DNA of 64,000 nt from a bacterium. GTDB lineage: Bacteria > UBA8248. Of this stretch, positions 2,027 to 54,783 are shown piece after piece (positions within the stretch are counted from its first letter, which is position 1; each line of letters begins with the position of its first letter). The stretch is taken from the NCBI GenBank assembly GCA_963692865.2, contig OY843592.1, positions 3,296,001-3,360,000 of the forward strand, written 5' to 3'. Made by a program: the position numbers and the translations under genes. The notes under the pieces were generated by a model, which saw only the letters and a list, made by a program, of their open reading frames with translations, was not told the origin of the DNA and ran no database searches.

Positions 2027-2289
2027 GGGGTTGTTGAAAAAGTCCTCCAGGGGGAAATGATGTCCCAAAGAGCGCCGCCCGATGCGGGAAGGTGGTTTTG
2101 CTCCTCGCTTTTGATCGTCATTCCGGCGAAAGCCGGAATCCATTTACGGGTGCGGGTGAATGAAAGACGGCTTTTCATTCCCCGCCTATGCGCGGGAACC
2201 CTGACGAAAGGCAAAAGGCGTAAAAATGGATTCCGGCTTTCGCCGGAATGACGGCAAACCCTCCTACATCGAGGTTTTTCAACAACCCC
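2027..2289. mobile_element. MITE-like element with 15-bp terminal inverted repeats carrying a REP-type palindrome pair
   Basis: GGGGTTGTTGAAAAA (2027-2041) ... TTTTTCAACAACCCC (2275-2289). Internal inverted pair CGTCATTCCGGCGAAAGCCGGAATCCA (2116-2142) and its reverse complement (2227-2253). Confidence 0.8.
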
Positions 2290-2290
2290 A

Positions 2291-4402
2291 TCAAGCATCG
2301 TTTCCGGTGATGACGAGCCCATCCGCCACCAGGCACCCCCCGCCCCTCTCGCGCAGAAAAACGGGGTTCAAATCCATCTCCTCAATCCGCCCGCGGTGGG
2401 CGAAAGCGGCGTCTCCCAGGAGGCATACGGCCTCGGCGAACGCTGTTTTATCCAGCGGCCCGCGCCCCCGGCGGCTCTCGAAAACCTTCTTGCACTTGAG
2501 TTCATCCATCATCTCGTTGGCGTCATCGAGCGTGAGCGGGGCGACGCGCATGCTCACGTCGTCGAGTAGCTCCACATCCAGGCCGCCGAGTCCAATCGTC
2601 ACCACAAGACCGAACTGTGGGTCCCTTTTCACACCGAGCAAGAATTCCACACCGCCCTCGACCTGCTCCTGAAGCAGGTAGCCCTCCAGTTCGCACGCCT
2701 CCCGCAGTCTAGCGACCTCGGCGAGCGCGCCTTCGAGCGCCGCCTCATCGCCGAGGCCCGTTTTCACCAGTCCCCGCTCCGTTTTGTGGTGAATTTTCGA
2801 GGACACGCCCTTCAAAACGAGGGGAAATCGCAAATCACGCGCCGCGCGGCGAACCTCCTCACCCGAACGGCAGAACCGGTGCGCCACAACGGGCAAGCCA
2901 AAATCACGAGCGAGAGCCAGGCTTTGCGCCTCGTTCAGGACGCTCGCACTCGATAGTTTTTCCGCAATCAAGGGAGATGACGCTTGATACGCGGAGCGGG
3001 ATGCGCTTTTTCGCTCTCTTTTCAACACCTTCTCATATCGAACCAGGGCGGCCGCCGCGTGCGCGCAGCCCGGGATGGACTGAAAAGAGGCGATCCCCTC
3101 CCCCGCGAGCAGCCTGTGCGCATGCTCCGCATGGGGATTGAAATAGGCCAGCATGGGAACGCCGGGGTTCGTTTGCTTCAAGCGCACGATGGGCTCGACC
3201 CCCATCCCGGGCTTGAACTGCGCGCTCGAACCCACGATGGGAATCACCACGTCGAAGCAGCCGCTCTTGAGATAAGATTCGAGAAAATCAGAATACAGGT
3301 GAATGTCGGCGATGGTGGTGTCGAGCGGGTTCTCCATCCGCCCGAAGGCGGGGTGTTTTTCCTTCATTCGGGTACGGAGCGCGTCATCCACCTCGGCGAT
3401 TTCGAGGCCCAAGGCGCCGCACTTGTCGGCCATCAAGGCGCCGGCGCCGCCCGTCGTCGTTACGACTCCCAGTCTATTGCCTTCGGGAAGCGCCGAGACG
3501 CAGAACATGTGGGCGACCTCGAAAAGCGCTTCGAGGTCATCCACCCGCGCGACGCCCCACTTTCGGAACAGCGCCTCATATACCCTGTCCTCACCCACCA
3601 TGGCCCCCGTGTGGCTCAGGGCCGCTCGCTCCCCCTCGCGCGCTTCGCCCACTTTCAGCACGACCAGGGGTTTTTCCCGCCTCAGGGCCTTTTGGAGAAC
3701 TTTTTTGAACTTCTCCCCGTCGCGCACGCCTTCGAGATATACCGCGATGGCGCGGGTGTGGGGGTCGTCAATGAGATAATCGAGATAATCGGAGACCTCC
3801 AGGTCCATCTCGTTGCCGCAGGAGATGAGATGACTGAAGCCGACCCCGCGCTGCGTCGCGCGCGAGAGCAGCGCGCCGCCGATGCTTCCGCTCTGGCAGA
3901 CCACCCCGATGCCCCCGGGCAGCATCTCCTCCACGTCGAGCGCTATCAGGCCCGCCAGATGAAAATTGTGATGAAAGTTGTGCACGCCCGCCGTGTTCGG
4001 CCCGCAGACGCGGATGCCGGAATCCCGGGCGATGCGCTGGATTTCGGCTTCCAGGCGCGCGCCCGCCTCATCCGACTCGGAAAAACCGCCGGTATAGATG
4101 ATGGCCGCGCCCACCCCCGCCCCTGCGCATTGGCGCAGCACGCCCGCAACGCGCTCTCGTCCCACGGTGATGAAGGCGACGTCCGGCCCTTCGGGGAGCG
4201 CATCGAGCCTCGGCAGACAGCGCAGGCCGGCCACTTCTTCGTATTTGGGGTTTACGGGATAGACCCTGCCCGCAAATCCGTGGCGCAGGAGATTCTTCGC
4301 CACGCGGCCGTTGAATTGCTCCAGGTTCGCCGACGCTCCGACGATGGCTACCGACTCAGGTTTAAGAAGGCGCGCAAGGCTCTCGGTGGTTGCGGTCTGC
4401 AT
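2291..4402 (-). CDS. Acetate/acyl-CoA ligase (ADP-forming) family: CoA-binding domain plus ATP-grasp
   Basis: PESVAIVGAS, YPVNP, GPN, QSG, SHTGAM (phospho-His), HKTE and EMDLNPV motifs. Confidence 0.9.
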   Translation of the reverse strand: MQTATTESLARLLKPESVAIVGASANLEQFNGRVAKNLLRHGFAGRVYPVNPKYEEVAGLRCLPRLDALPEGPDVAFITVGRERVAGVLRQCAGAGVGAAIIYTGGFSESDEAGARLEAEIQRIARDSGIRVCGPNTAGVHNFHHNFHLAGLIALDVEEMLPGGIGVVCQSGSIGGALLSRATQRGVGFSHLISCGNEMDLEVSDYLDYLIDDPHTRAIAVYLEGVRDGEKFKKVLQKALRREKPLVVLKVGEAREGERAALSHTGAMVGEDRVYEALFRKWGVARVDDLEALFEVAHMFCVSALPEGNRLGVVTTTGGAGALMADKCGALGLEIAEVDDALRTRMKEKHPAFGRMENPLDTTIADIHLYSDFLESYLKSGCFDVVIPIVGSSAQFKPGMGVEPIVRLKQTNPGVPMLAYFNPHAEHAHRLLAGEGIASFQSIPGCAHAAAALVRYEKVLKRERKSASRSAYQASSPLIAEKLSSASVLNEAQSLALARDFGLPVVAHRFCRSGEEVRRAARDLRFPLVLKGVSSKIHHKTERGLVKTGLGDEAALEGALAEVARLREACELEGYLLQEQVEGGVEFLLGVKRDPQFGLVVTIGLGGLDVELLDDVSMRVAPLTLDDANEMMDELKCKKVFESRRGRGPLDKTAFAEAVCLLGDAAFAHRGRIEEMDLNPVFLRERGGGCLVADGLVITGNDA

Positions 4403-4440
4403 GATCAGGAGAATTCCCTAAAATTCATGGCGAGCGAAAA

Positions 4441-8401: not shown

Positions 8402-8423
8402 GCGAAAACTGGAGAAGAGAAAA

Positions 8424-13508: not shown

Positions 13509-14036
13509 TTGAACTGGACGATGCAGGGGCGCTGCTGGAAATTCGGAGACAACCTCTCTCTCGACGACGACATTCTCGAATTCGCAAAGGTCTTCGTGGG
13601 GGGCGTGCGCGTATCGGACCCCGAATACCTGAAACAACACGTCTTCACGAATCTTATCCCCGATTTTCCCGAGCGCGCGGAACCGGGCGACATCGTGGTG
13701 GCGGGAAAGCGGTTTGGACAGGGGAATCCCCACATATACGGCCTGCTGGGCATGGCGGGCTTAGGGCTGGGCCTCATCGCGGAGAGCGTTCCCCATTTCA
13801 CCTACCGGATGATCGTGGCGGCGGGGCTGCCCGCGCTTCCTTTCTTCACCGGTATCGGGGCGCATGTGGAAGATGGAGACGAGTTGCGCGTCGATTTCGA
13901 ATCCGGAGAGGTCGAGAACCTGAGTCGTGGCGTGCACTGGAAGTCGGAGCCTCTGCCCGATGCGCTGAGAGAGATCATCGAAACTGGCGGATTTCTCCCT
14001 GCCCTCAAAAAACGCCTCAATGCCTCTCTTTCATAA
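13509..14036 (+). CDS. Aconitase family small subunit (LeuD-like)
   Basis: GRCWKFGDN, GDIVVAGKRFG and IIETGG; adjacent to the large subunit. Confidence 0.82.
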   Translation: MNWTMQGRCWKFGDNLSLDDDILEFAKVFVGGVRVSDPEYLKQHVFTNLIPDFPERAEPGDIVVAGKRFGQGNPHIYGLLGMAGLGLGLIAESVPHFTYRMIVAAGLPALPFFTGIGAHVEDGDELRVDFESGEVENLSRGVHWKSEPLPDALREIIETGGFLPALKKRLNASLS

Positions 14037-14132
14037 GGCGAGCAACTTAAAGAGCCTCCTGCAAATATCCCCTTACGCGACTCTGCTTCTCGGATGGGTT
14101 TTTGAGATTTTTCCCCCAGTCCAAAAATTTTT

Positions 14133-14141
14133 TGCTATAAT
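14133..14141 (+). promoter_or_regulatory. Candidate extended -10 promoter for the Rieske-cytb-octaheme operon
   Basis: TGCTATAAT, a perfect TGnTATAAT, in an AT-rich stretch about 55 nt upstream of the Rieske ATG. No clear -35. Confidence 0.5.
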
Positions 14142-14194
14142 TTTTGACGTGACGTTTCGCTTCAGCGCATGACTTTTCGCAGTGGGGGCAGGCG

Positions 14195-14650
14195 ATGGCG
14201 TCATCGGAAACAGAACCAGGACTTGAACGGCGAGGCTTCATCGCCACGCTGTGCATGGCCGGCGGCGTCATCGTAAGCTACGGCACGGCGGCCGTCTACG
14301 GACTGCGCTATCTCTTCGGGAGGCAGCTTCCCCCCCGCATGACGCAGGTGCTCGTCGGCTCTCTCAACGACATCCCCGACGGCGGCAGCATCCTCAGCCA
14401 GGATTTGAGCGGCAGGAAATTCCTGCTCGTGCGCGCGAATGATTCGGTGCGCGCGTTTTCGACCGCGTGCACGCACCTGGGATGCCAGGTGTATTGGCAG
14501 GGAGACAAAAAGGTTTTCTTTTGCCCTTGCCACAACGGTTTCTTCGACGCGGACGGAAAACCCACCGCGGGTCCCCCGCCGACTCCTCTCGCCCGGTACC
14601 CCGTGGAGGTGCGCGGGGCGAGCGTTTTCGTCACCATGCCCGAGGCCTGA
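14195..14650 (+). CDS. Rieske iron-sulfur subunit of a cytochrome bc-type complex
   Basis: Tat-like ERRGFI plus a TM segment; CTHLGC and CPCHNG boxes. Confidence 0.93.
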   Translation: MASSETEPGLERRGFIATLCMAGGVIVSYGTAAVYGLRYLFGRQLPPRMTQVLVGSLNDIPDGGSILSQDLSGRKFLLVRANDSVRAFSTACTHLGCQVYWQGDKKVFFCPCHNGFFDADGKPTAGPPPTPLARYPVEVRGASVFVTMPEA

Positions 14651-14653
14651 GCC

Positions 14654-15709
14654 ATGAACAGCCGCTTGCCGCATTGGGTGGAAGAACGGATTCCCTTCGA
14701 TTGGGACCACCTCAGACACATCACGAGCGAACCCATACCGCGCCACCTGAAAAAATGGTGGTTCTGCGTGGGCGGCACGCCGCTGTACCTGTTCTTCATC
14801 CAGATCGTCACAGGGATAGCCCTCACCTTCTACTACGTTCCCGAGCCGGGAAAGGCGTATGAATCGGTGCGCCACATCACCGAGGCCGTGCCCTTCGGCT
14901 GGTGGATTCGCGGGATACACCGATGGTCGGCGGAACTGATGGTGGTGACCGTCATCCTCCACATGATGCGGGTGTTCTTCACGGGCGCATACCGCAAGCC
15001 ACGCGAGATCAACTGGCTCATCGGCATGGGCCTCCTCATCACCGTGTTCACCTTCGGGTTCACGGGCTATTCCCTGATTTACAACCAGCTTTCCTACTGG
15101 GCGGCCGTGGTGGGCACGAACATCGCCGCGGCGGTGCCCGGCGTAGGGCCCTATCTGGCGGGCTTCATTCGCGGAGGTCCAGTCATCAGCGCGAACACGC
15201 TGACGCGCTTCTACGTGCTTCACATCGGAATCTTGCCGACCACCGCGTTCGCCCTGCTCGCCCTCCACATTTTCTTCATCCGCATCCACGGGGTGAGCGA
15301 GTTCATCGACCCCAAGGACGAGGAGGCGAAAAAAGACAGATTCTTCCCGTTTTTCCCGGACCATTTTCTGACCGAGGTGGCCCTGGGCGTTTTTCTCATC
15401 TTTCTGGTCAGCCAACTGGCCATCATCTTCCCCGCCCAGATGGGAGAGCCGGCGAACCCGGCGGTCACGCCCGAACACATCAAGCCGGAGTGGTATTTCT
15501 ACCCCGTTTTCCGCTGGCTGAAGCTGTTTTCCTTCGAGGCCGGCATCATCGGGGCGATTCTCGTCGTCATCCTCATGTTCGCCTGGCCGTGGGTGGACGC
15601 CGCCATCGAACGCCGCTGGCCCGGGCGTGACATCAGCGTGTACGCCGGCATCGTCGCCGTCGTAACGATGACGATTTTCCTCATCATCGAGGGTTTGTCG
15701 GGACACTAG
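14654..15709 (+). CDS. Cytochrome b (b6-type N-domain fused to subunit-IV-like domain)
   Basis: Four heme His (IHRW, LHMMR, VLHI, ALHI), Qo motif IKPEWYF and FCVGG (heme ci Cys position). Confidence 0.93.
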   Translation: MNSRLPHWVEERIPFDWDHLRHITSEPIPRHLKKWWFCVGGTPLYLFFIQIVTGIALTFYYVPEPGKAYESVRHITEAVPFGWWIRGIHRWSAELMVVTVILHMMRVFFTGAYRKPREINWLIGMGLLITVFTFGFTGYSLIYNQLSYWAAVVGTNIAAAVPGVGPYLAGFIRGGPVISANTLTRFYVLHIGILPTTAFALLALHIFFIRIHGVSEFIDPKDEEAKKDRFFPFFPDHFLTEVALGVFLIFLVSQLAIIFPAQMGEPANPAVTPEHIKPEWYFYPVFRWLKLFSFEAGIIGAILVVILMFAWPWVDAAIERRWPGRDISVYAGIVAVVTMTIFLIIEGLSGH

Positions 15710-15736
15710 ATTCGAGACGCCGGAAGGGAGGGAGCC

Positions 15737-17077
15737 ATGCAGCTGCAAGCCAAGCAATGGATAGTCGCTATCTTGAGTCTGTTCTTTCTCGGCTCCCTGA
15801 TCACCGTCGGCCTCATCGAGAGCGAGCGCCTCGTGCCCGAACGGGAGAAAAAAGCCGTCGTCACGGCCAAAAACGAAGGGTGCGTGAACTGCCACACGGA
15901 GAAATCGCCGGGCATCGTCGCCCAGTGGAAAGACAGCCGCCACGCGCAAATCGGCGTGGGCTGCCTGGACTGCCACGAAGCCGAGAAGGGCGACAAGGAC
16001 GCCTGGCAGCACGAGGGGTCCCTGGTGGCCGTCATCGTATCGCCCAAGGATTGCGCGAAGTGCCACGTCCAGCAAGCGGAGGAGTTCACGGCCAGCCACC
16101 ACGCCAAGGCGGCGCAGTTCATCGGCAGCCTGGACAACTTCCTGGGCGTCGTCGTCGAGGGCGTGCCGGCGGCGGTGGGCGGATGCCAGAAATGCCACGG
16201 CTCCACCGTGAAGGTGCTCGCGAACGGGAGGCTCGACCCCGCCACCTGGCCCAACACGGGCATGGGGCGCATCAACCCCGACGGCAGCAACGGCGCTTGC
16301 TCGGCCTGCCATGCGCGCCACCAGTTCTCTCCCGCGCAGTCGCGGCGGCCCGAGAACTGCGGAAAATGCCACATGGGGCCGGATCACCCCCAAATCGAGA
16401 TATACGAGGAATCCAAGCACGGAATCGTCTTCCACGCGCGCGAGAAGGAGATGAACCTCGACAGCAAGAGCTGGGTGGTCGGCAAGGACTACACGGCGGC
16501 GCCCACCTGCGCGACCTGCCACATGAGCGCGGCGCCGAAGCTGCCGACCACGCACGACGTAGGCAAGCGCATCAGCTGGACGCTCAGGCCCGTCATCTCC
16601 AAGAAACTCGAGAACTGGGAGCAGAAACGCGACGACATGAAGAAGGTGTGCGTCGCCTGCCACGCGCCCTCGTTCGTGAACGCCTTCTACACGCAATACG
16701 ACAACGTTATCGACCTGTATAACGAGAAATTCGCGCATCCGGCGCAGAACATCATGAACGAGCTCAGAAAACAGAAGAAGCTCACCTCGGCGCCGTTTGA
16801 CGAGAAGATCGAGTGGACCTTCTTCGAGCTGTGGCACCACGAGGGCCGACGCGCGCGGATGGGCGCGTCCATGCAGGGGCCCGACTTCACGCAGTGGCAC
16901 GGGTTCTACGAAGTCGCCAAGCACTTTTATTTCAAGTTCTTACCCGAAGCCGAGGAGCTCCTCCCCGGCGTGAGCGAGCAATTCGTCACGGGCAGGCACC
17001 ACGCCTGGCGCAAGGGCATGAGCAAGGCGCAGATCCAGCAGATGCTCGACTTTTACGAAACGCGGTACGGGAAGTAA
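15737..17077 (+). CDS. Membrane-anchored octaheme cytochrome c, hydroxylamine oxidoreductase (HAO) family
   Basis: Eight CxxCH motifs (CVNCH, CLDCH, CAKCH, CQKCH, CSACH, CGKCH, CATCH, CVACH), HMGPDHPQIEIYEESKHG, APTCATCHM and an N-terminal hydrophobic helix. Confidence 0.9.
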   Translation: MQLQAKQWIVAILSLFFLGSLITVGLIESERLVPEREKKAVVTAKNEGCVNCHTEKSPGIVAQWKDSRHAQIGVGCLDCHEAEKGDKDAWQHEGSLVAVIVSPKDCAKCHVQQAEEFTASHHAKAAQFIGSLDNFLGVVVEGVPAAVGGCQKCHGSTVKVLANGRLDPATWPNTGMGRINPDGSNGACSACHARHQFSPAQSRRPENCGKCHMGPDHPQIEIYEESKHGIVFHAREKEMNLDSKSWVVGKDYTAAPTCATCHMSAAPKLPTTHDVGKRISWTLRPVISKKLENWEQKRDDMKKVCVACHAPSFVNAFYTQYDNVIDLYNEKFAHPAQNIMNELRKQKKLTSAPFDEKIEWTFFELWHHEGRRARMGASMQGPDFTQWHGFYEVAKHFYFKFLPEAEELLPGVSEQFVTGRHHAWRKGMSKAQIQQMLDFYETRYGK

Positions 17078-17509
17078 AAACAACGGGATAAGAACGATAA
17101 CCTCGTCTTTTTCTTTCCTGTTCGGGGCGCATTTGCCCGCATTTGCAATGCCCGCGAGGGGGCCGAGATACGCTATGGTGCGTCCGCGCGGGAAATCGTT
17201 ACGCGGCGGTTTTCCTTCCATTTATTTATCGAAAAACATCGTGAATTTATCTGAATTTATACATATTTATTCGATATTTATCGAATTATCCGGGAGCCTG
17301 AAGATTCCGCGCCGTTTCCACCTTCTCTCGAACCGCTCGAAACGGATGCTCCCCCGGCGCGCGGGCATCCGGCGAAACGCCACGGAACGACCCTTCCCGC
17401 CCCGGCTCCTTCCCTCTAAAAAAACTACCCTTGCCCGTTGCGCTATGCTAACTTGCTTTTCCGGGCAGCCGGTTGTATTCGAACATCCCGTTCAGGGAGG
17501 AATTAAGCC

Positions 17510-18240
17510 ATGAGCAGCCATCCTTTCGACAACTAGTTCCACGTCACCCCCGAGCACAAGGAGCAATTCCGGCGCGACGGCTTCGTCAAGCTCGAAGGGT
17601 TCTACAACCCTGAAGTGGTCGAGGCGCTGCTTGCGCGCGTCGAAGCCGAAATGGACCGGGGGGTGGCCGGCGGTATAACGGGCGATGAAATGTTCAACCG
17701 GGCGAAGTATGACTTCGCAGGCGAAAGAACGGAAGTCTATGAACTGCTGGAGCGGCCTTACCTGCGAACGGCGCTTACGGATCTGGTCGAATGCGACCTC
17801 TTTCTGACCTTCGAGCAGTGCTTTGAAGTCGAAAAGAACGTCAGCAAGGGATTCCCCTGGCACGTCGGCGCGCAGAGCTTCGGCTTTCAACCCGCTGAGG
17901 AATTCGCGTGCACGCTGTGGGCGCCGCTGCATCCCGTGGACACGAAGGGCCAGCGGGGCGGGATGGCTTATGTCCCCGACCGCGTCATATCGGGCGATTT
18001 CATCTTCCGCCAGATCGAGCCGGCGGTCGTCTCCACGCTGGAGGCCAAGGAGCAAGCCGGCGTCAGGACGAACGTAGATGAATACTTCGCCATGCGTTCG
18101 GGGATCCTCAATTCGCCGACCATGTGCGAGATACTCGAGAACCACCAGGTCGAAGACGATTTCAAGCCCGGCGACGCGCTCCTGTTCAACAAAATGGTCG
18201 TCCACCGGAGCATAATGCTCGGCGAGGGCGCGCTTCCCAG
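17510..18240 (+). pseudogene. Phytanoyl-CoA dioxygenase-like (2OG-Fe(II)) gene with an in-frame TAG and a disrupted 3' end
   Basis: RBS AGGGAGG, ATG 17510, TAG at 17534-17536, then in-frame EHKEQFRRDGFVKL...WHVG...LWAPL...PGDALLF...VHRS. The C-terminus runs into repeat-derived sequence. Confidence 0.7.
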
Positions 18241-18343
18241 GCTGTTTGAAGATCGCCCGCGCAAACGCGTGAGGGCGCGCGCCGCAGGCCCGGGCGGGCG
18301 CAACTGCGATGAGCTTCCGAGCGGATTCCCGCACCCCCTTGAG

Positions 18344-18536
18344 GGGGTTGTTCAAAAAGCCCCCTCCGCCTCACCCTGAGTAGCGGCGAAGCCGCGTATC
18401 GAAGGGCGAAATTCGCGTCCCGCCGGTTGGATGCGTTCCCCCATCCTTCGATACGGCGCTTGCGCGCCTACTCGGGATGAGGAAAGAGGCGTCGGCGGTT
18501 TGCGGGGATCGAAGACGGGGGTTTTTCAACAGCCCC
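18344..18536. mobile_element. MITE-like element carrying a GAGTAG-hairpin-GTATCGAAGG inverted pair
   Basis: GGGGTTGTTCAAAAA ... TTTTTCAACAGCCCC. Internal CTGAGTAGCGGCGAAGCCGCGTATCGAAGG and inverted CCTTCGATACGGCGCTTGCGCGCCTACTC. An extra right end lies at 18577-18591. Confidence 0.75.
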
Positions 18537-18714
18537 TGACAAGGGAGGTCGGGAGGGTTGCTCTCTTGACAAAGGCTTTTTCAACAAGCCCGTATGCGGC
18601 CCCTGCGGGAGAATCCAGACACCCAAGCGACGATCCAAAAAGGCGCCGGGCGTGATAAGGTGAGACCATCGAAACCCGAGAAAAATCCGTGAACACCCAC
18701 CCGGAGAACGCCAC

Positions 18715-19743
18715 ATGAACGAGATGGACGAATTCGAATTTTTTCTGGAGAAACCCTGGTCGGACGGCCTCCCCGTGGTGACGCCCACCGAAGAGCGCGT
18801 CGAGCGCATGCTGGCGGGAACGTCGAGATCGCCCGACGAGGCCGTGACCCCCGTTCCCCCTCTGGACGAGGTCGCCACCGTTCGAGACATCGCCGCCCAC
18901 GCCGTCATGGCCGGATGCAAACCCGAGTACCTCCCCGTCGTCATCGCGGCTCTGGAACTCATCGTGGAGGAGCCGCTCAACCTGCGCGGCGTGCAGGCCA
19001 CCATGCACAGCGTCGCGCCCCTCCTCATCCTGAACGGCCCATATGCGAAGAAGATAGGCGTCACGGGCGGGCAGGGATGCTTCGGCCCCGGCTTTCGGGC
19101 GAACGCCACCATCGGCCGCGCCGTCCGCCTGCTTCTGCTCAACCTGGGCGGCGGAATCGCGCGCGTCGCGTGCATGAGCATCTACAGCCAGCCCTCGCGC
19201 TTCACGTTCTGCGTCGCGGAGAACGAGGAGGAAAGCCCCTGGGAGTCGCTCGCCGCATCGCGCGGCTATGGTGAAGATGAAGACGTGATCACCGCCGTCA
19301 TGGTGGAAAACCCCCACATCGTCTTCAACGACGTGGACCGCGACCCCGAGCGCCTGCTCGTCTCCCACATGGACAACATGGCGGCGATGGGTTCGTGGCC
19401 CATCTGGGTGAGGTCGGACACCGTGCTCGTCCTCTCCCCCGAGCACGCGCGCCTGTGCGCGGGAGCCGGCTTCTCGCGCGCGGACGTGCACGCGTACGTC
19501 TCGGAGAACGCGGGGCGCAGGGTGGGCGAACTCAAGCGCGGCGGCCCCTGGCGGGAGGACAAGCCGAACGGGCGGTGGGAGTACCCGGTGGACAGGGAGG
19601 ATGACGACTTCTTCATCCGCGTCGTGAACGAACCCGAAGACCTGCACCTCATCGTCGCGGGCGGCGAGGGGCCCCTCGGCGCGGTGATGCCCGGCTGGAA
19701 CGGCGCCAGCCGCGCCGTGCACCGGGCGTACGAGGCGACGTGA
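18715..19743 (+). CDS. Conserved hypothetical protein of the WxDGLPxxxPT family (usually found beside or fused to UGSC-type (seleno)proteins)
   Basis: WSDGLPVVTPTEERVERML, AVMAGCKPEYLPVV, RANATIGRAVRL and AENEEESPW motifs. Confidence 0.7.
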   Translation: MNEMDEFEFFLEKPWSDGLPVVTPTEERVERMLAGTSRSPDEAVTPVPPLDEVATVRDIAAHAVMAGCKPEYLPVVIAALELIVEEPLNLRGVQATMHSVAPLLILNGPYAKKIGVTGGQGCFGPGFRANATIGRAVRLLLLNLGGGIARVACMSIYSQPSRFTFCVAENEEESPWESLAASRGYGEDEDVITAVMVENPHIVFNDVDRDPERLLVSHMDNMAAMGSWPIWVRSDTVLVLSPEHARLCAGAGFSRADVHAYVSENAGRRVGELKRGGPWREDKPNGRWEYPVDREDDDFFIRVVNEPEDLHLIVAGGEGPLGAVMPGWNGASRAVHRAYEAT

Positions 19744-19793
19744 TGATCCGGTAAGGGCCGCATAAATACGGTATGGACCCACTCCTCCCCCGA

Positions 19794-20245
19794 GGGGTTG
19801 TTGAAAAACCCTATCCGCCTCATCCTGAGTAGCGGCGAAGCCGCGTATCGAAGGTCAATCGCAACCAATGCGGGAGCGAATGCCTCTCGCCTCTGCGCGA
19901 GGCATTCGACCCTCCTCGCCCTTCGATATAAACGCTCCTTTCTCGGGGCTGTTGAAAAACCCGGAGAGAGACAATTTGTTTGTAGGTGACAACCCCTCCT
20001 CGGGGTTGTCCCACACATATCATGCGACCCTGATTTTCGCCTCCGCAAGGCGGGCCGCATGATATGTCAGACATATATGTCTGACCTACAAAAACCGTTC
20101 CTCCCCGGTCGCGTAAAACACTCGCTCATCAGGACTTTTTCAACAGCCCATTCTCAGTCGCGTTTGACCTTCGGCGGCTGCTCAGGGTGAGGAAAAGGAC
20201 GTTGGCGGCTTGCCGGGGCCGCAGATGGGGTTATTCAACAACCCC
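19794..20245. mobile_element. Nested MITE-like element: inner element 19945-20149 inside an outer element homologous to 18344-18536
   Basis: Ends occur in the order L(19794) L(19945) R(20149) R(20245). The outer interior matches the 18344 element at both ends; the inner element carries GTAG-type hairpins. Confidence 0.72.
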
Positions 20246-20264
20246 TTTTAGGGTATCGCTTTTA

Positions 20265-20737
20265 CCCCCCTGACAAGGGGGACAGGGGGGGCTTTTTCGA
20301 CTGTTCCTTGCGGGCCGGTCGGGGTTCCCCCGTAGTGGGCCGTTCACGAAAACAACCCACTACAAAACCATCGCCCCCTTTTGCCTATGCTCGTCATTCC
20401 GGCGAAAGCCGGAATCCATTTGCGGACGCGGGTGAATGAACGACGGCGTTTCATTCCCCGACGATGCGCGGGAATCCTGACGAAAGGCGTAAAAATGGAT
20501 TCCGGCTTTCGCCGGAATGACGGTGGTTTTCCCGCATCAAGGAGACTTTTCAACAACCCCTTGAGGGTCGGGCGGATACACAGGCCCGCCGCTGCAAAGC
20601 CCCAAAAATCGTAATGAACCCGTAGGGGAGTACCCGCGTGTCCTCCCCCCCACGTCGTTCTGGTCGTGAGCCTGGTGTAGAGGCCGGAATGACGGCGGTG
20701 GTCAATTCCGATCGGGGAGGGGTTTTTCAACAACCCC
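20265..20737. repeat. Mosaic repeat island: CCCCCTGACAAGGGGG unit, REP-pair module, GTAG hairpin and two right-end TIRs
   Basis: Module 20392-20522 is nearly identical to 2116-2253. TTTTCAACAACCCC occurs at 20547-20560 and 20723-20737. Confidence 0.78.
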
Positions 20738-20755: not shown

Positions 20756-22057
20756 CTACAACTCGATCACGTCCATCGCGTCGGGGTTGAGGACGCGCGG
20801 GCCGTTCTCCTCCACGATCACCTGGGGGCCGAAGACCATGAATATCCTGTCCTCGTGCGCGGCCTTGATTTCGACTGCGAGGGCCATGCCCGCCTCCACC
20901 TCGAAATCCTCCAGGAAGCCGTAGCGGCCCCCCGCGAGTTCTTGCCATTCGGGGTTCTCGGCGAGGCTCCCCTCCACGTAGGGTTCGCGCCAGGGGAAGT
21001 TCCGGGGAATGTCGCCCGCGCATATCGTCGTCATGGGCGGCTCGATGCCGTCGAGCCCCACCCCGTGCACCTGGGGGATTTCGTGATAAAACCCGCTCCG
21101 CAGGATCGCCCCGTTCGAGGCGCGGTCCACCTCGCTCCACGGCGTGCCGGGCTTCAAGGCGTCGAGCGCGGCGTGGAGACACTCTCGCACCGCCTCATGA
21201 ATGGGCTTGTAGTCGTCATCCATCGGCCCCAGCGACATCGAGGTGTGCGGGTGGCTCCAGTAGCCCCCGTAGCGCGAGTAGTAGCCGATGCACAGCATGT
21301 CGCCCGCCCGCAGAATCCTGTCCGTGGGTCTCCGGTTCACCGGATAGCCCTTGCCCGAGCACATGATGAGCCAGCTGTCGCGCCCCGCCTCGGCGCCCGC
21401 GCGCAGGCTCGCGCTGAAAAGCTCCGCGTACACCTCGCTCTCGCGCACCCCCGGACGGCAGCAGCCGAGCACGGCGTCTATCTCGATGTTCACCATCTCG
21501 GCGGCCTTCTCCATCATCGCTATCTCCTCGGCGCTCTTGATGATGCGAAGGCGCGTGAGGATGTCCGAGGCGTCGGCGAACTGCGCGTCCGGCAGGAGGC
21601 GTTTGAGGTTCTGGTACGTCATGTATGGAATCGCGCCCTCCGCGCCGTATCCCCCGCCGATGAGTCCGACGACGCCGATTCTCCCGCTCTCGTAGCCCAA
21701 CTCCTTGATGGCGTCTGCCGCCACGATGCTCACCTTCCCCTCGTGGCCCCGGTAGCGCACCCCCTCGAAGCACGACTCGGTGTACCACTTGCCCCAGTTC
21801 TGCAGGAGCCAGAAGGTCACGGGCGCGCCGTTTCGGGGAAACACCATGCTGCGCTCGCCGTAATCGCCCCCGTCGAGCCAGCGGGCGTTGCCGTTGCCGT
21901 TCGAGCCGCGCCCGACCACGATGAGGCAATCGAGCCCGCGCTCGTCCATGGCGGCGCGCACCGCGCTCCACCGCCTGTCGCGCTCCTCGGCGGAAAACGC
22001 TGCCGCCGCATCGCCCGTGCGGCCGTCTTTCGGGAAAAACCTGGGGTCCGTTACCAT
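20756..22057 (-). CDS. M24 family (creatinase / Xaa-Pro peptidase fold) hydrolase
   Basis: Creatinase_N-like ERDRRWSAVRAAM, RIIKSAEEI, RPGVRESEV and HGVGLD. Most M24 metal ligands are absent. Confidence 0.82.
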   Translation of the reverse strand: MVTDPRFFPKDGRTGDAAAAFSAEERDRRWSAVRAAMDERGLDCLIVVGRGSNGNGNARWLDGGDYGERSMVFPRNGAPVTFWLLQNWGKWYTESCFEGVRYRGHEGKVSIVAADAIKELGYESGRIGVVGLIGGGYGAEGAIPYMTYQNLKRLLPDAQFADASDILTRLRIIKSAEEIAMMEKAAEMVNIEIDAVLGCCRPGVRESEVYAELFSASLRAGAEAGRDSWLIMCSGKGYPVNRRPTDRILRAGDMLCIGYYSRYGGYWSHPHTSMSLGPMDDDYKPIHEAVRECLHAALDALKPGTPWSEVDRASNGAILRSGFYHEIPQVHGVGLDGIEPPMTTICAGDIPRNFPWREPYVEGSLAENPEWQELAGGRYGFLEDFEVEAGMALAVEIKAAHEDRIFMVFGPQVIVEENGPRVLNPDAMDVIEL

Positions 22058-22787: not shown

Positions 22788-22864
22788 ACCGGGAGCGCGG
22801 TCGCCGCGGTATCTCCGCCCTCCTCGGTTCTGTAAGGGCGTCCTCTCGTGGTTCGCCTGTGGCT

Positions 22865-23877
22865 GTCATTCCGGTGTCAGACCCGACCAATGCGGGAGGG
22901 TTTGACGGAATCCAGAGCCGATGAGGATCAAGGCGCTCGGGACTTCCATGTTCTCACCGCTCAGATCGGAAATGGCGAAGTACAAAGACGAAAAGGCAAG
23001 GTGAAATGTCCCCCGTGGGACATTTCTGGATTCCGCATTCTCTTCCTCATCGGGCGAGAATGATCGCCGGAATGACGAGCAAAACCACTCATCCACTGTA
23101 GGGACAGGTCGCGACCTGTCCCTACGGGTTCGTTAAAATACGCGAGATGTCCGTAGGGGCGGCCCACCGTGTCCGCCCGGTTCCACACGCGGACATGGAG
23201 AACCGGGAGAACACATAGGTTCTCCCCTAAACAAGAACCTAGCGTAGGGGCGACCCCCCGTGGTCGCCCTTCCCCTTGTGGCGCCCTTCCTTCATCCCGA
23301 GTAGGCGCGCTCGCGCGCCGTATCGAGGGAGCGTGTCGAAGGGCCTGCCCTGAGCGCACCGAAGGGGAGCGCCCTTCGATACGCCGCTTCGCGGCTACTC
23401 AGGGTGAGGCCAGTGCGGGAGGCGGGCAAGACGAAGAGAGCGCCTCCGCTTCCGTAGGGGGTTTTTGATTTTACCCCCCTGTTAAGGGGGGTAGGGGGGG
23501 GTGCTTTTCCAGTCGAGAGGGGCGTCCCCTCTACCCCTTAAAAAGTCCACCTCGATCGGTCGATTCCTTCCTCATCGGCCGGAACCGACCACCGCCGTCA
23601 TTCCGGCGAATGCCGGAATCCAGGGGTTTCGTATTTCGTTTTTCGCCGCAATGCCCGTCCCATTAGAGAAGAAATGAAACGCCGCGATTTCTCCGCCCTC
23701 ATCGGTTCTGGATTCCGGCTTTCGCCGGAATGACGAACAATACCGCATTCGCCCGTAGCCGGACAGGCTTCTACGCCTGTCCAGGGTTCGCGTACTGTGG
23801 GACAACCCCGAGGAGGGGTTGTCACTACAATCCCATCATGTCGAACCTTCATTTATCAGGGCTTTTTCAACAACTCC
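22865..23877. repeat. About 1 kb non-coding mosaic of palindromic repeats
   Basis: REP pairs (22865-23077 variant; 23596-23735), GTAGGGACAGGTCGCGACCTGTCCCTAC (23098-23125), further GTAG hairpins, a GAGTAG/GTATCGA pair (about 23292-23409), CCCCCCTGTTAAGGGGGG and a right TIR at 23863-23877. Confidence 0.8.
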
Positions 23878-26186: not shown

Positions 26187-26215
26187 GGTCGAACCCACAC
26201 GAGAGGAGGCAAATC

Positions 26216-27055: not shown

Positions 27056-27087
27056 GGGGGCGCTACTGATGGACTTTTTCGCTGACA

Positions 27088-27441
27088 GGGGCTGTTAAAA
27101 AATCGTGTTTTCGTGATTCAGCGTATGGTGTAGGGGTCGTTCGCGAACGTCCCCTACAGAAAACATGGCATTCGCCTTGCTCGTCATTCCAGCGAAAGCC
27201 GGAATCCATTTGCGAGTGAGATTGAATGAACGGCGGCCTTTCATTCCCCGCCGATGCGTTGGAACCCTGACGAAAGGCAAGAGCGAGGAAGATATGTAAC
27301 CTCCTCATCCCGAGTAGGCCCGTAAGGGCCGTATCGAGGGACGAGGAGGGTCGAAAGCCTCGCGCCGGGCGAAAGGGCATCCTTCGATACGCAGCTTCGC
27401 CGCTACTCAGGATGAGGCGGAGGGGGCTTTTTTAACAGCCC
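27088..27441. mobile_element. MITE-like element with a TIR variant and mixed palindromic cargo
   Basis: GGGGCTGTTAAAAAA ... TTTTTTAACAGCCC, with the same G>A change in both ends. Cargo is a GTAG hairpin, a partial REP module (from 27182) and a GAGTAG/GTATCGA pair. Confidence 0.72.
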
Positions 27442-27475
27442 TTGAAGGTCTTTGTCTTGTGACGAGAGAGAAATT

Positions 27476-27693
27476 CACTCCCCTCCTTGAGGGGGAGTCG
27501 GTGAAGCCGAGCGATTTGTGCGAAGGCTGAACCGGTGGGGGGTCAATTCCGAGCGAGAAGCGAGGAATTGCGTTCCGATGGCAGCCTCGCCTTAGGCCTG
27601 TAAACGCTCCCTAATCGGTCGCGATTGACCCCCCACCGACTCGCTTGCGGGCTTACGCCCTTAGCTCGTCGACTCCCCCTCAAGGGGGGAGTG
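27476..27693. repeat. CACTCCCCCCTTGAGGGGGAGTCG-type inverted-repeat element
   Basis: Inverted ends CACTCCCCTCCTTGAGGGGGAGTCG / CGACTCCCCCTCAAGGGGGGAGTG. Homologues at 29177-29337 and 54557-54726. Confidence 0.8.
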
Positions 27694-27852
27694 GTTGCTA
27701 AATGCTCTACAAAGGGGAAGTGAAATTCCTCATTCGTTTTTTGTGCCTTATCCCCAAGTGTGGAGTGTTGTATCCTGTCCCGACATTCGTCTAGATACCC
27801 GGAATCGCGGAATCAGGGGTTTTTCAACAACTCCCGACAGGAGAGACTGAGA

Positions 27853-29031: not shown

Positions 29032-29176
29032 GGGAATGATATACATGACTCGGCGGCGGGATTCCGGGTTCTGAAATCGAAAAGAAAAGACATAATTATT
29101 CCCCTTTTGAGGGGGTTATTGAATAAACTCGATTTCGTGATTTGGCGTGTGTAATCGACAGACGAGATACAAGAAT

Positions 29177-44988: not shown

Positions 44989-45278
44989 GGAGCTGTTGAA
45001 AACCCTTTCCCGCTCGGTTTTCACCATCGCCGTCATTCCGGCGAAAGCCGGAATCCATTCTAAAGCAGAATGACAATACGCGGGCTGCTCATCTCCCCGT
45101 CATTGGCGAGAATCTGACAAAAAACAAAGGCAAGACAAATGGATTCCGGCTTTCGCCGGAATGACGAACAAAATCGAACCGCCTCTTGTAGGGACAGGTC
45201 GCGACCTGTCCCTACGGACCTTCCTCCCCGGTTGGTTCCATTTGCCAAATCACGGAATCAGGACTTTATCAACTGCCC
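44989..45278. mobile_element. Degenerate MITE-like element with a REP pair and a GTAG hairpin
   Basis: GGAGCTGTTGAAAA ... TTTATCAACTGCCC; REP pair at 45031-45057 / 45140-45166; GTAGGGACAGGTCGCGACCTGTCCCTAC at about 45188-45215. Confidence 0.68.
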
Positions 45279-45294
45279 TATTACGATCTCCCGC

Positions 45295-50010: not shown

Positions 50011-50087
50011 CAAGATCGATCTCCGGCCTAGATTGGACAGGACTTGACGTTTTTCGGGAATCCCCAATAACCGAACGTAACGGAGGG

Positions 50088-53122: not shown

Positions 53123-54514
53123 ATGTCCAGAAAATTCTTCTCAGACCACGCGAAGTGGCCCCGGTGCGTTTCGGGTGGGCCTTTCCTGTTCTTCAGCGGG
53201 CGGATGGGAATGCGCCCGGGTACGGGGAACATCTGCACCAGGTACGCCGAAATCGGAGAAAAGGGGCCTGCGCGGACGAAGAACTACCCCTGGGTCGACA
53301 GGATAGAAGCGCCCATCGGCGCGCAAGCCATCGCCACCTACGAAGGCGTGGGAGAAACGCTCGAAGCGCATGGCGGAGGGCTGGAGAACCTGCTCCGGTT
53401 CCATCTCTATCAACTCGACAAGCGCTTTTTCCCGGTATTCGACAGCATCCGGCGCCACTATGAACCGAAAGACCCGACGCCGAGCACCGCCGTAGGCATG
53501 GGCGCGTTCGATCTGGAGCGTACCGTGCGCTTCAACATCGACGCCATCGCTCTTAATCCCGAAGCCGCGAAAACGCTGGGGAAAAGAATGGCGCACGAAG
53601 GCTCGAAGGCGCATTCGGCCGCGGCCCATTTCTCCCACGTCGTGGGCGCGGGGCCGTACCTTTTCGTCGCCGGGCAGATTCCGACGGATACCTCGAAACC
53701 CGGCTCCCCCCTCATCCGCAACTATCCCGACATCCCCAAGAGGGGGAGATTCCTCTCCGTCGGCCAGAGCCATGAGGACAGCAGGAACGGCCCCATCGCC
53801 GCGCAGACATGGTTCGTCTACGATCTGATCCGCAAACATCTGGAAGGCTCGGGGTCGTCTCTCGAAAACATCCTGAACCTGACCGTCTATCTCGGGGACA
53901 TGCGCGATTTCCCCACCTTCCACCGCATCCATGAGCGGTTCTTCCCGAAAGACCCGCCCGCCCTCACGGTGATGCAGGTGGCGGAAGTCGGCCACAAGGG
54001 GGAGAAGATCGAAATCGAACCGACGGCGCTGATGGATAAAAGCAAGATCAAGCGCGAGGTGATACGGGGTGAGGATGGCGCAGGCGCCCAGATGAGCCTG
54101 GGCGTCGCGGCGGGCGGCGTGTTGTTCCTCTCGAACCTGATCGGCCTGAACGGGGACGGCGAGCCGATCAGCAAAAGGAGCGAGCTCAAGGGAGCGCTCC
54201 GCCGGAGACTGCCGAAAGCGCCTTCACCGGCGACGAGAAACGTAGTCCTACAGGGGCTTGCGATTCTGGATCGGATGGAAGGCGCGATGAAGGCCGCAGA
54301 CGCCGACATGAGCCGCGTGACGCACCTGACGCTGTTTCTCCAGAACATCGCTCACCTATCGGCGCTCGAACCCCTGTTCAGGAAATACTTCCCGAAGCGA
54401 AGGCCGGCCTTCACCGCCATCCAGATACCCGAAACCTCTCCCGTGGCCGGTACGGAAGTCTCGATGACGGCCATCGGGTGGATAGGCGACGGCGCCCCGG
54501 AGATCGTCGCGTAA
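53123..54514 (+). CDS. Protein with three tandem RidA/YjgF-like domains
   Basis: Three repeats of GxxLFxSGxxG...AQ...L...G..L.....TxYL...F...P(A/T)xT...IEIxxxA. Starts right after the Mo-enzyme stop (TAAATG). Confidence 0.8.
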   Translation: MSRKFFSDHAKWPRCVSGGPFLFFSGRMGMRPGTGNICTRYAEIGEKGPARTKNYPWVDRIEAPIGAQAIATYEGVGETLEAHGGGLENLLRFHLYQLDKRFFPVFDSIRRHYEPKDPTPSTAVGMGAFDLERTVRFNIDAIALNPEAAKTLGKRMAHEGSKAHSAAAHFSHVVGAGPYLFVAGQIPTDTSKPGSPLIRNYPDIPKRGRFLSVGQSHEDSRNGPIAAQTWFVYDLIRKHLEGSGSSLENILNLTVYLGDMRDFPTFHRIHERFFPKDPPALTVMQVAEVGHKGEKIEIEPTALMDKSKIKREVIRGEDGAGAQMSLGVAAGGVLFLSNLIGLNGDGEPISKRSELKGALRRRLPKAPSPATRNVVLQGLAILDRMEGAMKAADADMSRVTHLTLFLQNIAHLSALEPLFRKYFPKRRPAFTAIQIPETSPVAGTEVSMTAIGWIGDGAPEIVA

Positions 54515-54515
54515 A

Positions 54516-54783
54516 GGGGTTGTTGAAAAAGCCCACAGAAGGAGCGCGCCCAATTTCACTCCCCCCTTGAGGGGGAGTCGACGAGGTAAGGGCGTAAGCC
54601 CGCAAGCGAGTCGGTGGGGGGAGCTTTTTCTGTGGCACGTCCCCCCACCGAGTCAGCCTTCACCTGTCGGTTCGGCTTCCTCGTCTGGCTTTCCCCTCGG
54701 AAAGCCAGACCCTCAAGGGGGGAGTGAACTTCAAAAGCGCGCACGCAACCCAAAATCGCTTACCGGGGGTTTTTCAACAACCC
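54516..54783. mobile_element. MITE-like element carrying an inverted copy of the CACTCCCCCCTTGAG element
   Basis: GGGGTTGTTGAAAAA (54516-54530) ... TTTTTCAACAACCC (54770-54783); cargo at 54557-54726. Confidence 0.78.

Follow-up and report, generated by a model that had tools for sequence, protein, structure and literature searches.

The window (the whole stretch of 64,000 nucleotides that we analyzed) carries, between its genes, short elements bounded by paired terminal inverted repeats (TIRs), together with unpaired ends and a repeat island (Table 1). The core 15-mer of the ends, GGGGYTGTTGAAAAA, gave 16 window matches at ≤1 mismatch where 0.02 were expected, a number reached in 0 of 100 shuffles of the window. 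Relaxing to ≤3 mismatches gave 30 matches against 2.06 expected and added the degenerate ends at 27428-27442, 29112-29126, 44989-45003 and 45265-45279. All ends listed in a preliminary description of this DNA were recovered, with its right-hand coordinates being off by 1 in four pairs.

Table 1. Predicted MITEs, unpaired ends and repeat island in the window.
Feature	Position	Strand	Flanks and location	Interior or contents
Paired MITE, 263 bp	2027..2289	.	5-bp repeats GTCAG (2022-2026) and ATCAA (2290-2294), the right one overlapping the stop codon of the acyl-CoA synthetase-like gene 2291-4402 (-)	Inverted pair of ATTCCGG hairpins; interior cluster 3
Paired MITE, 193 bp	18344..18536	.	Left, C-tract half-hairpin (…CCCCC TTGAG); right, TGACA then G-rich tract	GAGTAG...GTATCGAAGG hairpin pair; interior cluster 1
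Unpaired right end	18577..18591	-	41 bp past right end of 18344..18536 MITE	
Outer MITE, 452 bp	19794..20245	.		GAGTAG-type cargo; encloses second MITE
Inner MITE, 206 bp	19945..20150	.	Nested in 19794..20245; perfect 5-bp TSD TTCTC at 19940-19944 and 20151-20155	GTAG-hairpin cargo; interior cluster 0
Unpaired right end	20546..20560	-	Left, ATTCCGG hairpin pair (about 20393-20521); right, TTGAG then GGTCGGG	
Unpaired right end	20723..20737	-	Adjoins M24 peptidase-like gene 20756-22057 (-)	
Unpaired right end	23863..23877	-	Within variable intergenic DNA (about 22160-23860)	
Repeat island	27060..27843	.	Between creatininase-like and dehydratase-like genes	27088-27442 MITE, CACTCCCCCC-type hairpin pair, right end 27820-27834
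Paired MITE, 355 bp	27088..27442	.		GTAG, ATTCCGG and GAGTAG modules; interior singleton
Unpaired degenerate left end, 2 mismatches	29112..29126	+		
Degenerate paired MITE, 291 bp, ends with 2 and 3 mismatches	44989..45279	.	Between convergent genes	ATTCCGG pair and GTAG hairpin
Paired MITE, 269 bp	54516..54784	.	TSD GTAAA (54511-54515) and ATAAA (54785-54789), the left copy overlapping the TAA stop of gene 53123-54514 (+); gene 54791-55753 convergent	CACTCCCCCC-type cargo; interior cluster 2

Across the genome, which was assembled from a metagenome and has contamination estimated at 6.69% as well as duplicate haplotype contigs, the 15-mer occurred 413 times exactly, 806 times at ≤1 mismatch (37 of these on the small contigs C2-C8, duplicates of parts of C1) and 1073 times at ≤2 mismatches, against 0, 0 and 12 matches for a reversed-pattern control. 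Adjacent ends that face each other (+/-) were spaced 100-500 bp apart in 275 of 321 cases, versus 24 of 318 for -/+ neighbors, which places the pairing noted in the preliminary description far above chance. The conserved TIR starts with GGGG and spans ~19 bp, beyond which conservation stops, and unpaired ends numbered 417 at ≤2 mismatches, with a weak partner found for 209 of them against 114 in an outward control. An identical G-to-A change in both ends of the 27088..27442 MITE had been taken as a sign that pairing of the ends is maintained; the change is real but a lone case, with 218 same-variant end pairs observed genome-wide over 22 terminal positions where 217.7 were expected. The two ends do not co-vary, which fits a protein recognizing each end.

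The same TIRs bound a 1514-bp insertion sequence (IS) that is present in two 100% identical copies with exact TIRs elsewhere on this chromosome, beyond the window, and that encodes a single 480-aa ORF (DDE transposase) between its ~19-bp ends. Genome-wide tblastn with this transposase matched only these two copies (C1:1499197-1500636 and C1:1724400-1725839) and two fragments (C1:414457-414837 and one on C2); there was no match anywhere in the window, so the earlier statement that the window holds no transposase is true for the IS1182 transposase. The ORF scored 345.5 bits against the NCBIfam IS1182 model NF033551 (cut-off 270), with the second-best model, that of IS5, reaching 91.6 bits and staying under its own cut-off, and it possessed the Pfam domains PF05598, PF01609 and PF13751 (DUF772, DDE_Tnp_1, DDE_Tnp_1_6) above their cut-offs. 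IS1182-family elements are single-ORF elements of ~1.3-2 kb with short TIRs (size range as in ISfinder), and some members use palindromic targets. Curated-model score, domain make-up (N-terminal DUF772 region, then a DDE domain whose C-terminal part is DDE_Tnp_1_6), single-ORF TIR-bounded structure, a short target duplication and the C-tract/G-tract target all place our element in this family. Both copies have perfect 5-bp target-site duplications (TSDs; TTGAG and CTCAA) and lie in the same hairpin repeat. The same TIR is found on related IS copies in congeners (76-84% aa identity) and on more distant copies (59-61%), and the transposase is present in 14 of the 17 genomes that have the 15-mer (this genome counted) versus 0 of the 6 congeners that do not. 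This IS1182-family IS has the 15-mer as the core of its ~19-bp TIR, and the non-autonomous, IS-derived nature first suggested for the ends (IS5/IS1182 type) is thus upheld for the IS1182 type, down to finding a transposase gene bounded by the same TIR.

Genome-wide, 291 paired elements ranged from 70 to 756 bp (median 251), and they share with MITEs the lack of a transposase gene, IS-matching TIRs, a TSD of the length made by the IS, and presence/absence breakpoints at their ends. We read the 150-500 bp elements as MITEs of the IS1182-family IS, and the co-occurrence of TIR and transposase suggests that they are mobilised in trans by its predicted transposase activity. At E ≤ 1e-10, a single end-related match of 55 bp to the IS was found and otherwise just the terminal ~19 bp were shared, which argues against the MITEs being simple deletion derivatives of the parent IS, although an interior derived from the parent is not demanded by most MITE definitions.

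Contrary to the preliminary description, which saw no consistent TSD, a 5-bp duplication was exact in 57 of the 291 elements and present with ≤1 mismatch in 87, against 4.9 expected, and the excess was limited to exactly the 5 flanking positions. CCCC lay within 8 nt on the left of 85/291 elements and GGGG on the right of 86/291, with both present at 40/291, whereas random or local controls gave 2.4-3.3% for a single side and 0.1-0.2% for both. The target-site profile, built from 25 non-redundant sites, shows a strongly preferred target consisting of a C-tract, 5 nt and a G-tract, corresponding to the loop in the genome's hairpin repeats with G/C stems. A hairpin is not required for insertion, and the two unique-sequence empty sites examined were no more stably folded than shuffled sequence (z -0.02 to +1.5). 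Only ~30% of paired elements still have a visible TSD, and the others are flanked by two different hairpins or by none; other processes, such as recombination, adjacent deletion or replacement, must therefore be frequent. At the 18344..18536 MITE, the left and right flanks form no matching TSD.

Comparison with related genomes revealed empty sites whose breakpoints lie exactly at the element ends, the presence/absence polymorphism to which the preliminary description had looked. G003, G008 and G017 have no element at the 2027..2289 site, the two flanks overlapping by exactly 5 bp in the latter two, and the 44989..45279 slot is empty in G016 (56 bp there). The 27060..27843 island is replaced by just 31-32 bp in G008 and G002, and the inserts of G011, G012 and G016 at this place gave no alignment to the window island. 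Ten related genomes have nothing at the 54516..54784 site, and 6 further sequences hold unrelated interiors there. The filling of intergenic slots changes rapidly from one related species to the next, and turnover of element occupancy was seen at both strain and species level.

Evaluating what lies between the ends, we found that the interiors of the 291 elements formed 98 clusters when ≥60% coverage was required (the biggest with 84, 32, 28 and 26 members), that the five strict window pairs fell into five different clusters, and that at least 14 subterminal arm types, with 14-65 copies each, occurred in many pairings. The early impression of mostly non-homologous interiors, and of combinatorial elements instead of a uniform MITE family, was accordingly a good one. 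Many MITE arms contain hairpins of the target type, and elements sit nested in these. Pairs enclosing other ends made up 35 of 328 in the genome, and 118 same-orientation neighbor pairs were ≤100 bp apart, such as the right ends of the 18344..18536 MITE and at 18577..18591; in these tandem ends, the outer arm closes with a hairpin half that immediately precedes the inner TIR. Composites have also moved recently in their entirety, since of 44 element pairs that are ≥97% identical, 42 share no related flank on either side.

We give a probability of about 85% to a MITE swarm of the IS1182-family IS, in which the transposase targets C-tract/G-tract hairpin loops and the MITEs nest in each other. 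The IS1182-type transposase would insert MITEs into the loop formed by a C-tract, 5 nt and a G-tract, duplicating 5 bp, and insertion of a GGGG...CCCC element would leave a target-like junction (C-tract, 5 nt, GGGG) on both sides; because every insertion would create such junctions, nesting and clustering would be self-feeding. The interiors would be mosaic because the MITEs carry target-like hairpins, nest into one another and are later trimmed, such that deletion or recombination between common modules after a nesting event could give new arm-and-cargo combinations and any segment retaining two good ends could be amplified. Self-targeting of this sort would explain the mosaics and make the interchangeable cargo a by-product with no packaging function. 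The elements are a known kind of mobile DNA, namely IS1182-type MITEs, in a very abundant example.

An unlikely alternative is in-situ replacement, whereby an incoming MITE would oust the resident at the same site, with the old 5-bp repeats retained and the cargo truly exchanged. At the 54516..54784 site, the second haplotype contig C3 has an element at the identical position and between the same 5-bp repeats that possesses an unrelated interior and different TIR variants; in a tree, the two haplotypes group as sisters (100/99 support) and the next branches are the empty G018 and G003. At this site, 7 of 17 sequences are filled, with at least 4 unrelated interiors. Around window position ~26190, four species have common rare outer-TIR variants yet different interiors, and an insertion that replaces inverted repeats has been proposed for IS1272, another IS1182-family member (PMC5678879). 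However, independent insertions at one preferred site explain the same data and have a precedent in TnSha1, for which multiple independent insertions into one target are reported (PMC4923244). With flanks that differ by 3-10% between them, the two haplotypes have had time to receive separate insertions; nesting and deletion inside a retained outer element explain the ~26190 case, and no intermediate or footprint was seen. A related idea, doubtful but not far-fetched, is that the transposase takes resident MITEs or insertion-made junction hairpins as preferred targets, swapping MITEs at a fixed address by stem-loop-replacing transposition. If so, limited intergenic slots, often at stop codons between convergent genes, would be repeatedly refilled with different hairpin cargo, and a self-renewing, self-targeting MITE ecosystem would be shuffling several repeat families across the whole genus.

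The preliminary description went further and read the ends as carriers or hotspots for REP families that package interchangeable cargo (a modular MITE/REP system); that the TIR pair is a dedicated carrier which actively captures or packages REP-family modules we consider improbable. Its association of the ends with several hairpin-repeat families was well founded, as 37-59% of the copies of 7 of 8 module motifs (19% for the eighth) sit in the 1.9% of the genome made up by paired elements, a 10-30 times enrichment, and the diverse interiors point the same way. Yet 41-81% of module copies lie outside TIR pairs, a ~150-bp ATTCCGG element recurs without TIRs across the genus, and hairpins are as frequent in the flank (target) role as in the cargo role, while to our knowledge no capture mechanism exists for DDE transposases of the IS1182 family. 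A carrier of interchangeable cargo is thus partly right as a description but is not supported as a mechanism; target preference, nesting and deletion explain the data more simply.

A REP/REPIN system in which a RAYT (Y1 tyrosine transposase) drives movement and the 15-mer belongs to a REPIN is very improbable. REP-typical GTAG-plus-hairpin units are abundant (241 and 116 copies of two types) and present as inverted pairs, and REP/BIME/REPIN mosaics are likewise intergenic and built from few hairpin modules; REPINs depend on RAYTs, however, and a search of this genome with Y1_Tnp (PF01797) gave no match; among 23 genomes from the genus, 11 gave weak or partial matches. The RAYT link once suggested for the modules is thereby left without a gene here, and neither 5-bp TSDs nor a DDE IS that shares these ends is in keeping with RAYT biology. 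Equally little credence is due to Tn3-derived miniature elements (TIMEs), which GGGG termini and a 5-bp duplication, both Tn3-family hallmarks, might suggest, and whose ends likewise bracket and move varied DNA as mosaic non-autonomous elements with solo ends common. The genome has no DDE_Tnp_Tn3 (PF01526) match, end conservation stops after ~19 bp where TIME IRs are ~38 bp, identical ends occur on an IS of another transposase family, IS1182, and the cargo is short hairpin repeats and not genes. A host regulatory or structural motif (protein-binding site or terminator) would suit the intergenic location near stop codons but is barely credible given the TSDs, the exact empty sites, an IS that shares the ends and near-identical copies whose flanks are unrelated, and no Rfam family was found in the window.

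Our preferred reading of an IS1182-type MITE swarm has its closest counterpart in MITEPye1, described with ISPye18 in Paracoccus yeei (PMC11578231), which is similarly gene-less and intergenic with IS1182-like TIRs (~18 bp), short direct repeats and presumed movement in trans. As described there, MITEPye1 has 4-bp repeats and 1-3 copies per chromosome that are 96-100% identical, whereas here we see 5-bp repeats, 328 or more paired elements accompanied by hundreds of single ends, highly diverse interiors and insertion that favors a C-tract/G-tract hairpin loop. The target duplication is likewise given as 4 bp for ISPse1 (PMC3281130). The IS1182-family members IS1272 and TnSha1 of staphylococci target stem-loops or palindromes (PMC5678879, PMC4923244) and resemble our system in family, inverted-repeat or hairpin targets, little primary-sequence requirement and repeated independent insertions per target. 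The accounts of these two elements describe no TSD, with the hairpin deleted or replaced, unlike here, where the hairpin is retained, its 5-nt loop is duplicated ("pathway c" of the PMC5678879 model) and non-hairpin sites are also used. Landing of a mobile element inside extragenic palindromes is also described for ISPpu9 of Pseudomonas putida, which targets REP sequences (PMC12288879, PMC8450116) but belongs to the IS110 family and is not known to spawn a MITE swarm. G/C-stem hairpin repeats fill the intergenic DNA of the present genome.

The 15-mer GGGGYTGTTGAAAAA, which forms the core of the terminal inverted repeats (TIRs), occurred in the window 16 times at ≤1 mismatch (0.02 expected) and 30 times at ≤3 mismatches (2.06 expected). 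The whole 4.15-Mb assembly of 8 contigs, in which the window spans C1:3296001-3360000, contained 413 exact copies, 806 at ≤1 mismatch and 1073 at ≤2 mismatches, with a reversed-pattern control giving 0, 0 and 12. The assembly is of metagenomic origin, its contamination is estimated at 6.69%, and it contains duplicate haplotype contigs, which inflate these repeat counts slightly. The small contigs C2-C8 repeat regions of the main contig C1 in diverged form (window positions 31982-64000 match C3 at 89.5-97.4% identity) and probably stem from a second, co-assembled strain, such that strain-level comparisons are gained for free.

The orientation of the ends was strongly non-random, with 275 of 321 adjacent +/- neighbours spaced 100-500 bp apart but only 24 of 318 adjacent -/+ neighbours so spaced. 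Hence the facing of ends into pairs, which the preliminary description had proposed from the window alone, is borne out genome-wide, and all of its coordinates were recovered, including the degenerate pair at 44989-45279 and the ends at 27428-27442 and 29112-29126 (≤3 mismatches). Simple paired elements numbered 291 (70-756 bp, median 251) and together spanned 78,870 bp, or 1.9% of the assembly, while bracket-style matching of ends gave 328 pairs, 35 of them containing other ends, and left 417 ends without a partner. Conservation covered the 15-mer plus about 4 further inner bases (GGGGYTGTTGAAAAA-S-Y-C-C) and was at background level farther inside. The two ends of an element did not co-vary (218 same-variant pairs with 217.7 expected, over the 22 terminal positions minus position 5, the Y), which argues for separate recognition of each end by a protein and against a need for the ends to pair. 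Maintained pairing had been suggested from a substitution shared at 27088/27442; the G-to-A change is real, but it is a single case at that position (0.1 expected) and does not carry the suggestion.

Candidates for an autonomous insertion sequence (IS) were sought among +/- pairs 700-6000 bp apart, and two pairs of exactly 1514 bp with one long ORF each were found. These copies are 100% identical to each other and both lie on C1 outside the window, in agreement with the earlier observation that the window holds no transposase. Their 480-aa product scored 345.5 bits on the NCBIfam IS1182 model (cut-off 270) and carried the Pfam domains DUF772, DDE_Tnp_1 and DDE_Tnp_1_6. Both copies were inserted in the same repeat, with a CACTCCCCCC tract on one side and a GGTCGGG... 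tract on the other, and were surrounded by perfect 5-bp direct repeats (TTGAG; CTCAA). Transposase relatives at 76-84% identity occurred in the same genus, in up to ~30 copies per genome and with the same ends, and more distant ones (59-61% identity) occurred with the same ends in other metagenome-assembled genomes. Among the related IS copies of 1513-1529 bp, the only ones informative for target-site duplications (TSDs), perfect TSDs surrounded L031, L036 and L046 and were absent from several others (L037, L047, L050-L052, L055 and L060). Judged from its sequence, the autonomous element agrees with the IS1182 family in every trait tested. Six transposase copies in related genome G014 (e.g., G014:C4:589150-590580) have a single in-frame TGA in common and score identically; this stop-codon copy has apparently been amplified and was presumably moved in trans.

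Coordinates of the autonomous IS copies and of hairpin units in the window
Feature	Coordinates	Length	Remark
IS copy 1	C1:1499149-1500662	1514 bp	perfect ends
IS copy 2	C1:1724374-1725887	1514 bp	perfect ends
GTAG-plus-hairpin unit (example)	window 19990-20090		
GTAG-plus-hairpin unit (example)	window 27130-27160		
GTAG-plus-hairpin unit (example)	window 45190-45215		
ATTCCGG-bounded unit	window 2117-2253	~130-150 bp	
ATTCCGG-bounded unit	window 20393-20521	~130-150 bp	
ATTCCGG-bounded unit	window 45033-45166	~130-150 bp	

Among the genomes searched, the family was limited to this genus. Exact copies of the 15-mer numbered 31-338 in 16 of 22 congeners, the studied genome being the richest with its 413, and none of 28 other genomes of the class had >2. 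The transposase was present in 14 of the 17 motif-bearing genomes (the studied genome counted), the three exceptions being assemblies of 190-470 contigs, and in 0 of the 6 congeners without the motif.

The short elements, for which no consistent target-site duplication had been seen in the window, do have one of 5 bp. The five bases flush with both ends were identical in 57 of 291 elements, with 4.9 expected from shuffled partners, and differed at ≤1 position in 87. The excess fell at exactly five flanking positions (129-141 matches vs 76-87 expected), and one base farther out on either side the 291 elements showed no excess; a TSD was still recognisable in only ~30% of them. Empty sites gave a matching picture. 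Element 2027-2289 is missing from three related genomes (G003, G008 and G017), the last two showing an overlap of exactly 5 bp between the flanks, with breakpoints taken from BLAST coordinates, the MAFFT alignment being distorted by the large gap. At the island 27060-27843, 31-32 bp stand in its place in G008 and G002, and at C1:1220359 two sites ~60 bp apart are occupied by different MITEs, one in contig C4 and the other in C1, each contig being empty at the site filled in the other. Recent copies were also evident, in that 42 of 278 paired elements on C1 had a full-length relative ≥97% identical elsewhere on that contig, and in 42 of 44 such pairs the flanks were unrelated on both sides, which indicates that whole composites, ends and interior together, transpose as units. 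The short elements, best explained as MITEs of the 1514-bp IS, show the tested traits of such elements, with the exception that no interior derived from the IS was seen; only the terminal ~19 bp are common to MITE and IS. Public sequencing runs add nothing on empty alleles or present activity: four runs of one study contained the stretch, with contigs ending at both MITEs and no joint among the 15 listed skipping a whole element, and 20 other runs contained only small shares of it (0.12-0.18).

Two other origins were considered. Mosaic non-autonomous elements assembled by miniature elements have already been described in the Tn3 family (PMC4133298); a Tn3/TIME origin is ruled out here, as the studied genome has no Tn3-type transposase. 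A RAYT/REPIN origin, and with it the link drawn earlier between RAYT genes and the hairpin modules, falls for this genome on the lack of any Y1_Tnp (RAYT) transposase, and across the genus matches to Y1_Tnp were weak or partial only (11 of 23 genomes). Rfam and tRNA scans of the window matched nothing.

Grouped at ≥60% mutual coverage, the interiors gave 98 clusters, of which the largest had 84, 32, 28 and 26 members and most others were singletons, and the five strict pairs of the window fell into five different clusters, as expected from the earlier view that the interiors mostly differ. Some local similarity nevertheless linked 288 of the 291 interiors, and the pieces in common were the hairpin modules of the preliminary description. 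For 7 of 8 motifs tested, 37-59% of copies lay within the 1.9% of the genome made up by paired elements, with 19% for the C5-TGACAA-G5 unit, and modules also stand alone outside TIR pairs. At least 14 subterminal arm types (14-65 copies each) occurred in many pairings, the same type being rare at both ends; many arms consist of or end in the target hairpin, and the shortest elements (73-83 bp) are hardly more than one C/G hairpin between two TIRs. Several module types recur in their own right. GTAG-plus-hairpin units of the classic REP form had 241 and 116 copies of two types genome-wide, and C7-TA-C7 units beside C6-TTGTCA-G6 hairpins recurred as both cargo and target (at the relatives' loci L017, L019, L068, L072 and L074, and in element flanks of the studied genome). 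ATTCCGG-stem hairpins, as an inverted pair, bound a unit that also occurs without IS1182-type ends at well over 100 places across the genus among the matches listed (83-96% identity), with 651 matches beyond these, and that looks like a separate small mobile element.

The commonest duplicated pentamers were TTGAG, GACAA, TTGTC, TTCTC and CTCAA, with a C-run on one side and a G-run on the other, which identifies them as loops of the genome's G/C-stem hairpin repeats. Among the 291 elements, 85 had CCCC ≤8 nt to the left of the duplicated bases, 86 had GGGG to their right and 40 had both, as compared with 2.4%, 2.4% and 0.10% at random positions and 3.3%, 3.2% and 0.20% at control positions 150-400 bp away. 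The profile of 25 non-redundant reconstructed sites was symmetric, with C at 46-80% over seven positions, five mixed A/T-richer positions and then G at 46-80%. A strict test (stem ≥4 flush with a 5-nt loop) found 14 of 291 and was too strict, such that tract counts are preferred. A hairpin is not an obligatory target: 2027-2289 and 54516-54784 are the two window elements with exact empty sites in relatives, and their unique-sequence sites folded no better than shuffles (five folds, z-scores -0.02 to +1.48). At these two sites the duplicated pentamer (2290-2294 and 54511-54515) shares bases with a neighbouring gene's stop codon, and the gap beside or between the genes is very short.

Members of the IS1182 family are known to favour palindromes or stem-loops: IS1272 and TnSha1 go into hairpins, and a single target was hit independently several times (PMC5678879, PMC4923244). 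As described there, those elements leave no TSD and delete the hairpin, whereas the MITEs studied here duplicate a 5-bp loop, which corresponds to 'pathway c' in the model set out in PMC5678879.

Nesting was directly visible. In the window, 19945-20150 lies within 19794-20245 with the TSD TTCTC. Ends of like orientation lay ≤100 bp apart in 118 pairs, in which the outer arm as a rule extends to a hairpin half with the inner TIR directly after it. Insertion of GGGG...CCCC ends into a C-tract/5 nt/G-tract site would leave a target-like junction on both sides, so that insertions would make new targets and favour clusters and nests; deletion or recombination could then yield new end-cargo-end combinations, and any segment keeping two intact ends would be amplifiable. 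Near window position 26190, the studied genome and G008 are empty, and G002, G011, G012 and G016 share rare outer-end variants around four different interiors; nested insertions, with later deletions taking part of the older element, would account for the differences.

Comparing the window with syntenic DNA of three relatives (G011, G012 and G016) revealed colinearity breaks of ≥60 bp at 13-15 places per comparison. The 12 intergenic slots compared closely held inserts of 170-2100 bp in at least one genome, mostly with these ends, between flanking genes 75-93% identical. Where the studied genome and a relative both held ≥120 bp, 0-43% of the shorter insert aligned to the other; among the inserts of the three relatives, 0-100% was common. 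Slot 54516-54784 was empty in 10 genomes and filled at the same position in seven sequences with at least four unrelated interiors; relatives have only ~3 nt there between two convergent genes, yet it was filled in 7 of 17 sequences. In the slot tree, the window and C3 haplotypes were sisters (100/99 support), and the branches next to them, G018 and G003, were empty. The elements of the two haplotypes are nevertheless unrelated and differ in TIR variant, while the pentamer beside them is the same. The rest of the tree was set aside: two of its basal branches are long (0.35 and 0.38), a probable effect of the only partial homology of the right flank in G014, G010 and G034. Two options would account for the slot, namely repeated independent insertion into one preferred site and replacement of a resident element, the latter of which we consider unlikely.

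IS1182-derived MITEs and hairpin targeting in this family are known already. MITEPye1, as portrayed in the account of it in PMC11578231, differs in having 4-bp repeats and 1-3 near-identical copies per chromosome, and our literature search (ISfinder lay outside its scope) found no description of this TIR family or of an IS1182 MITE swarm this large. What is notable here is the abundance, the 5-bp loop-duplicating insertion directed by C- and G-tracts, the wealth of arm combinations and the way the same intergenic slots are filled time after time. The presence of one 15-mer at least 1000 times in a genome of 4.15 Mb is thereby explained by ordinary transposon biology with a named enzyme family, and the sites form a natural data set on IS1182-family target choice in which the hairpin loop is duplicated, as opposed to the hairpin-deleting mode of IS1272. 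Because of the abundance, the arm combinations and the same slots being refilled in related species, the genus is a good system for studying MITE family diversification and the pace of intergenic DNA turnover. In short-read assemblies of these organisms, the MITEs will cause breaks at predictable places.

At the thirteenth common break, 14020-20720, the genomes differ in the genes they carry; the stretch measures 6.7 kb in the studied genome, 14.6 kb in G016 and 2.6-2.7 kb in G011 and G012, and it is bordered by the window's densest cluster of MITE ends. A further variable intergenic stretch contains a small ORF at 22186-22584 with a weak UPF0150-like match (27.2 bits, cut-off 27.3).
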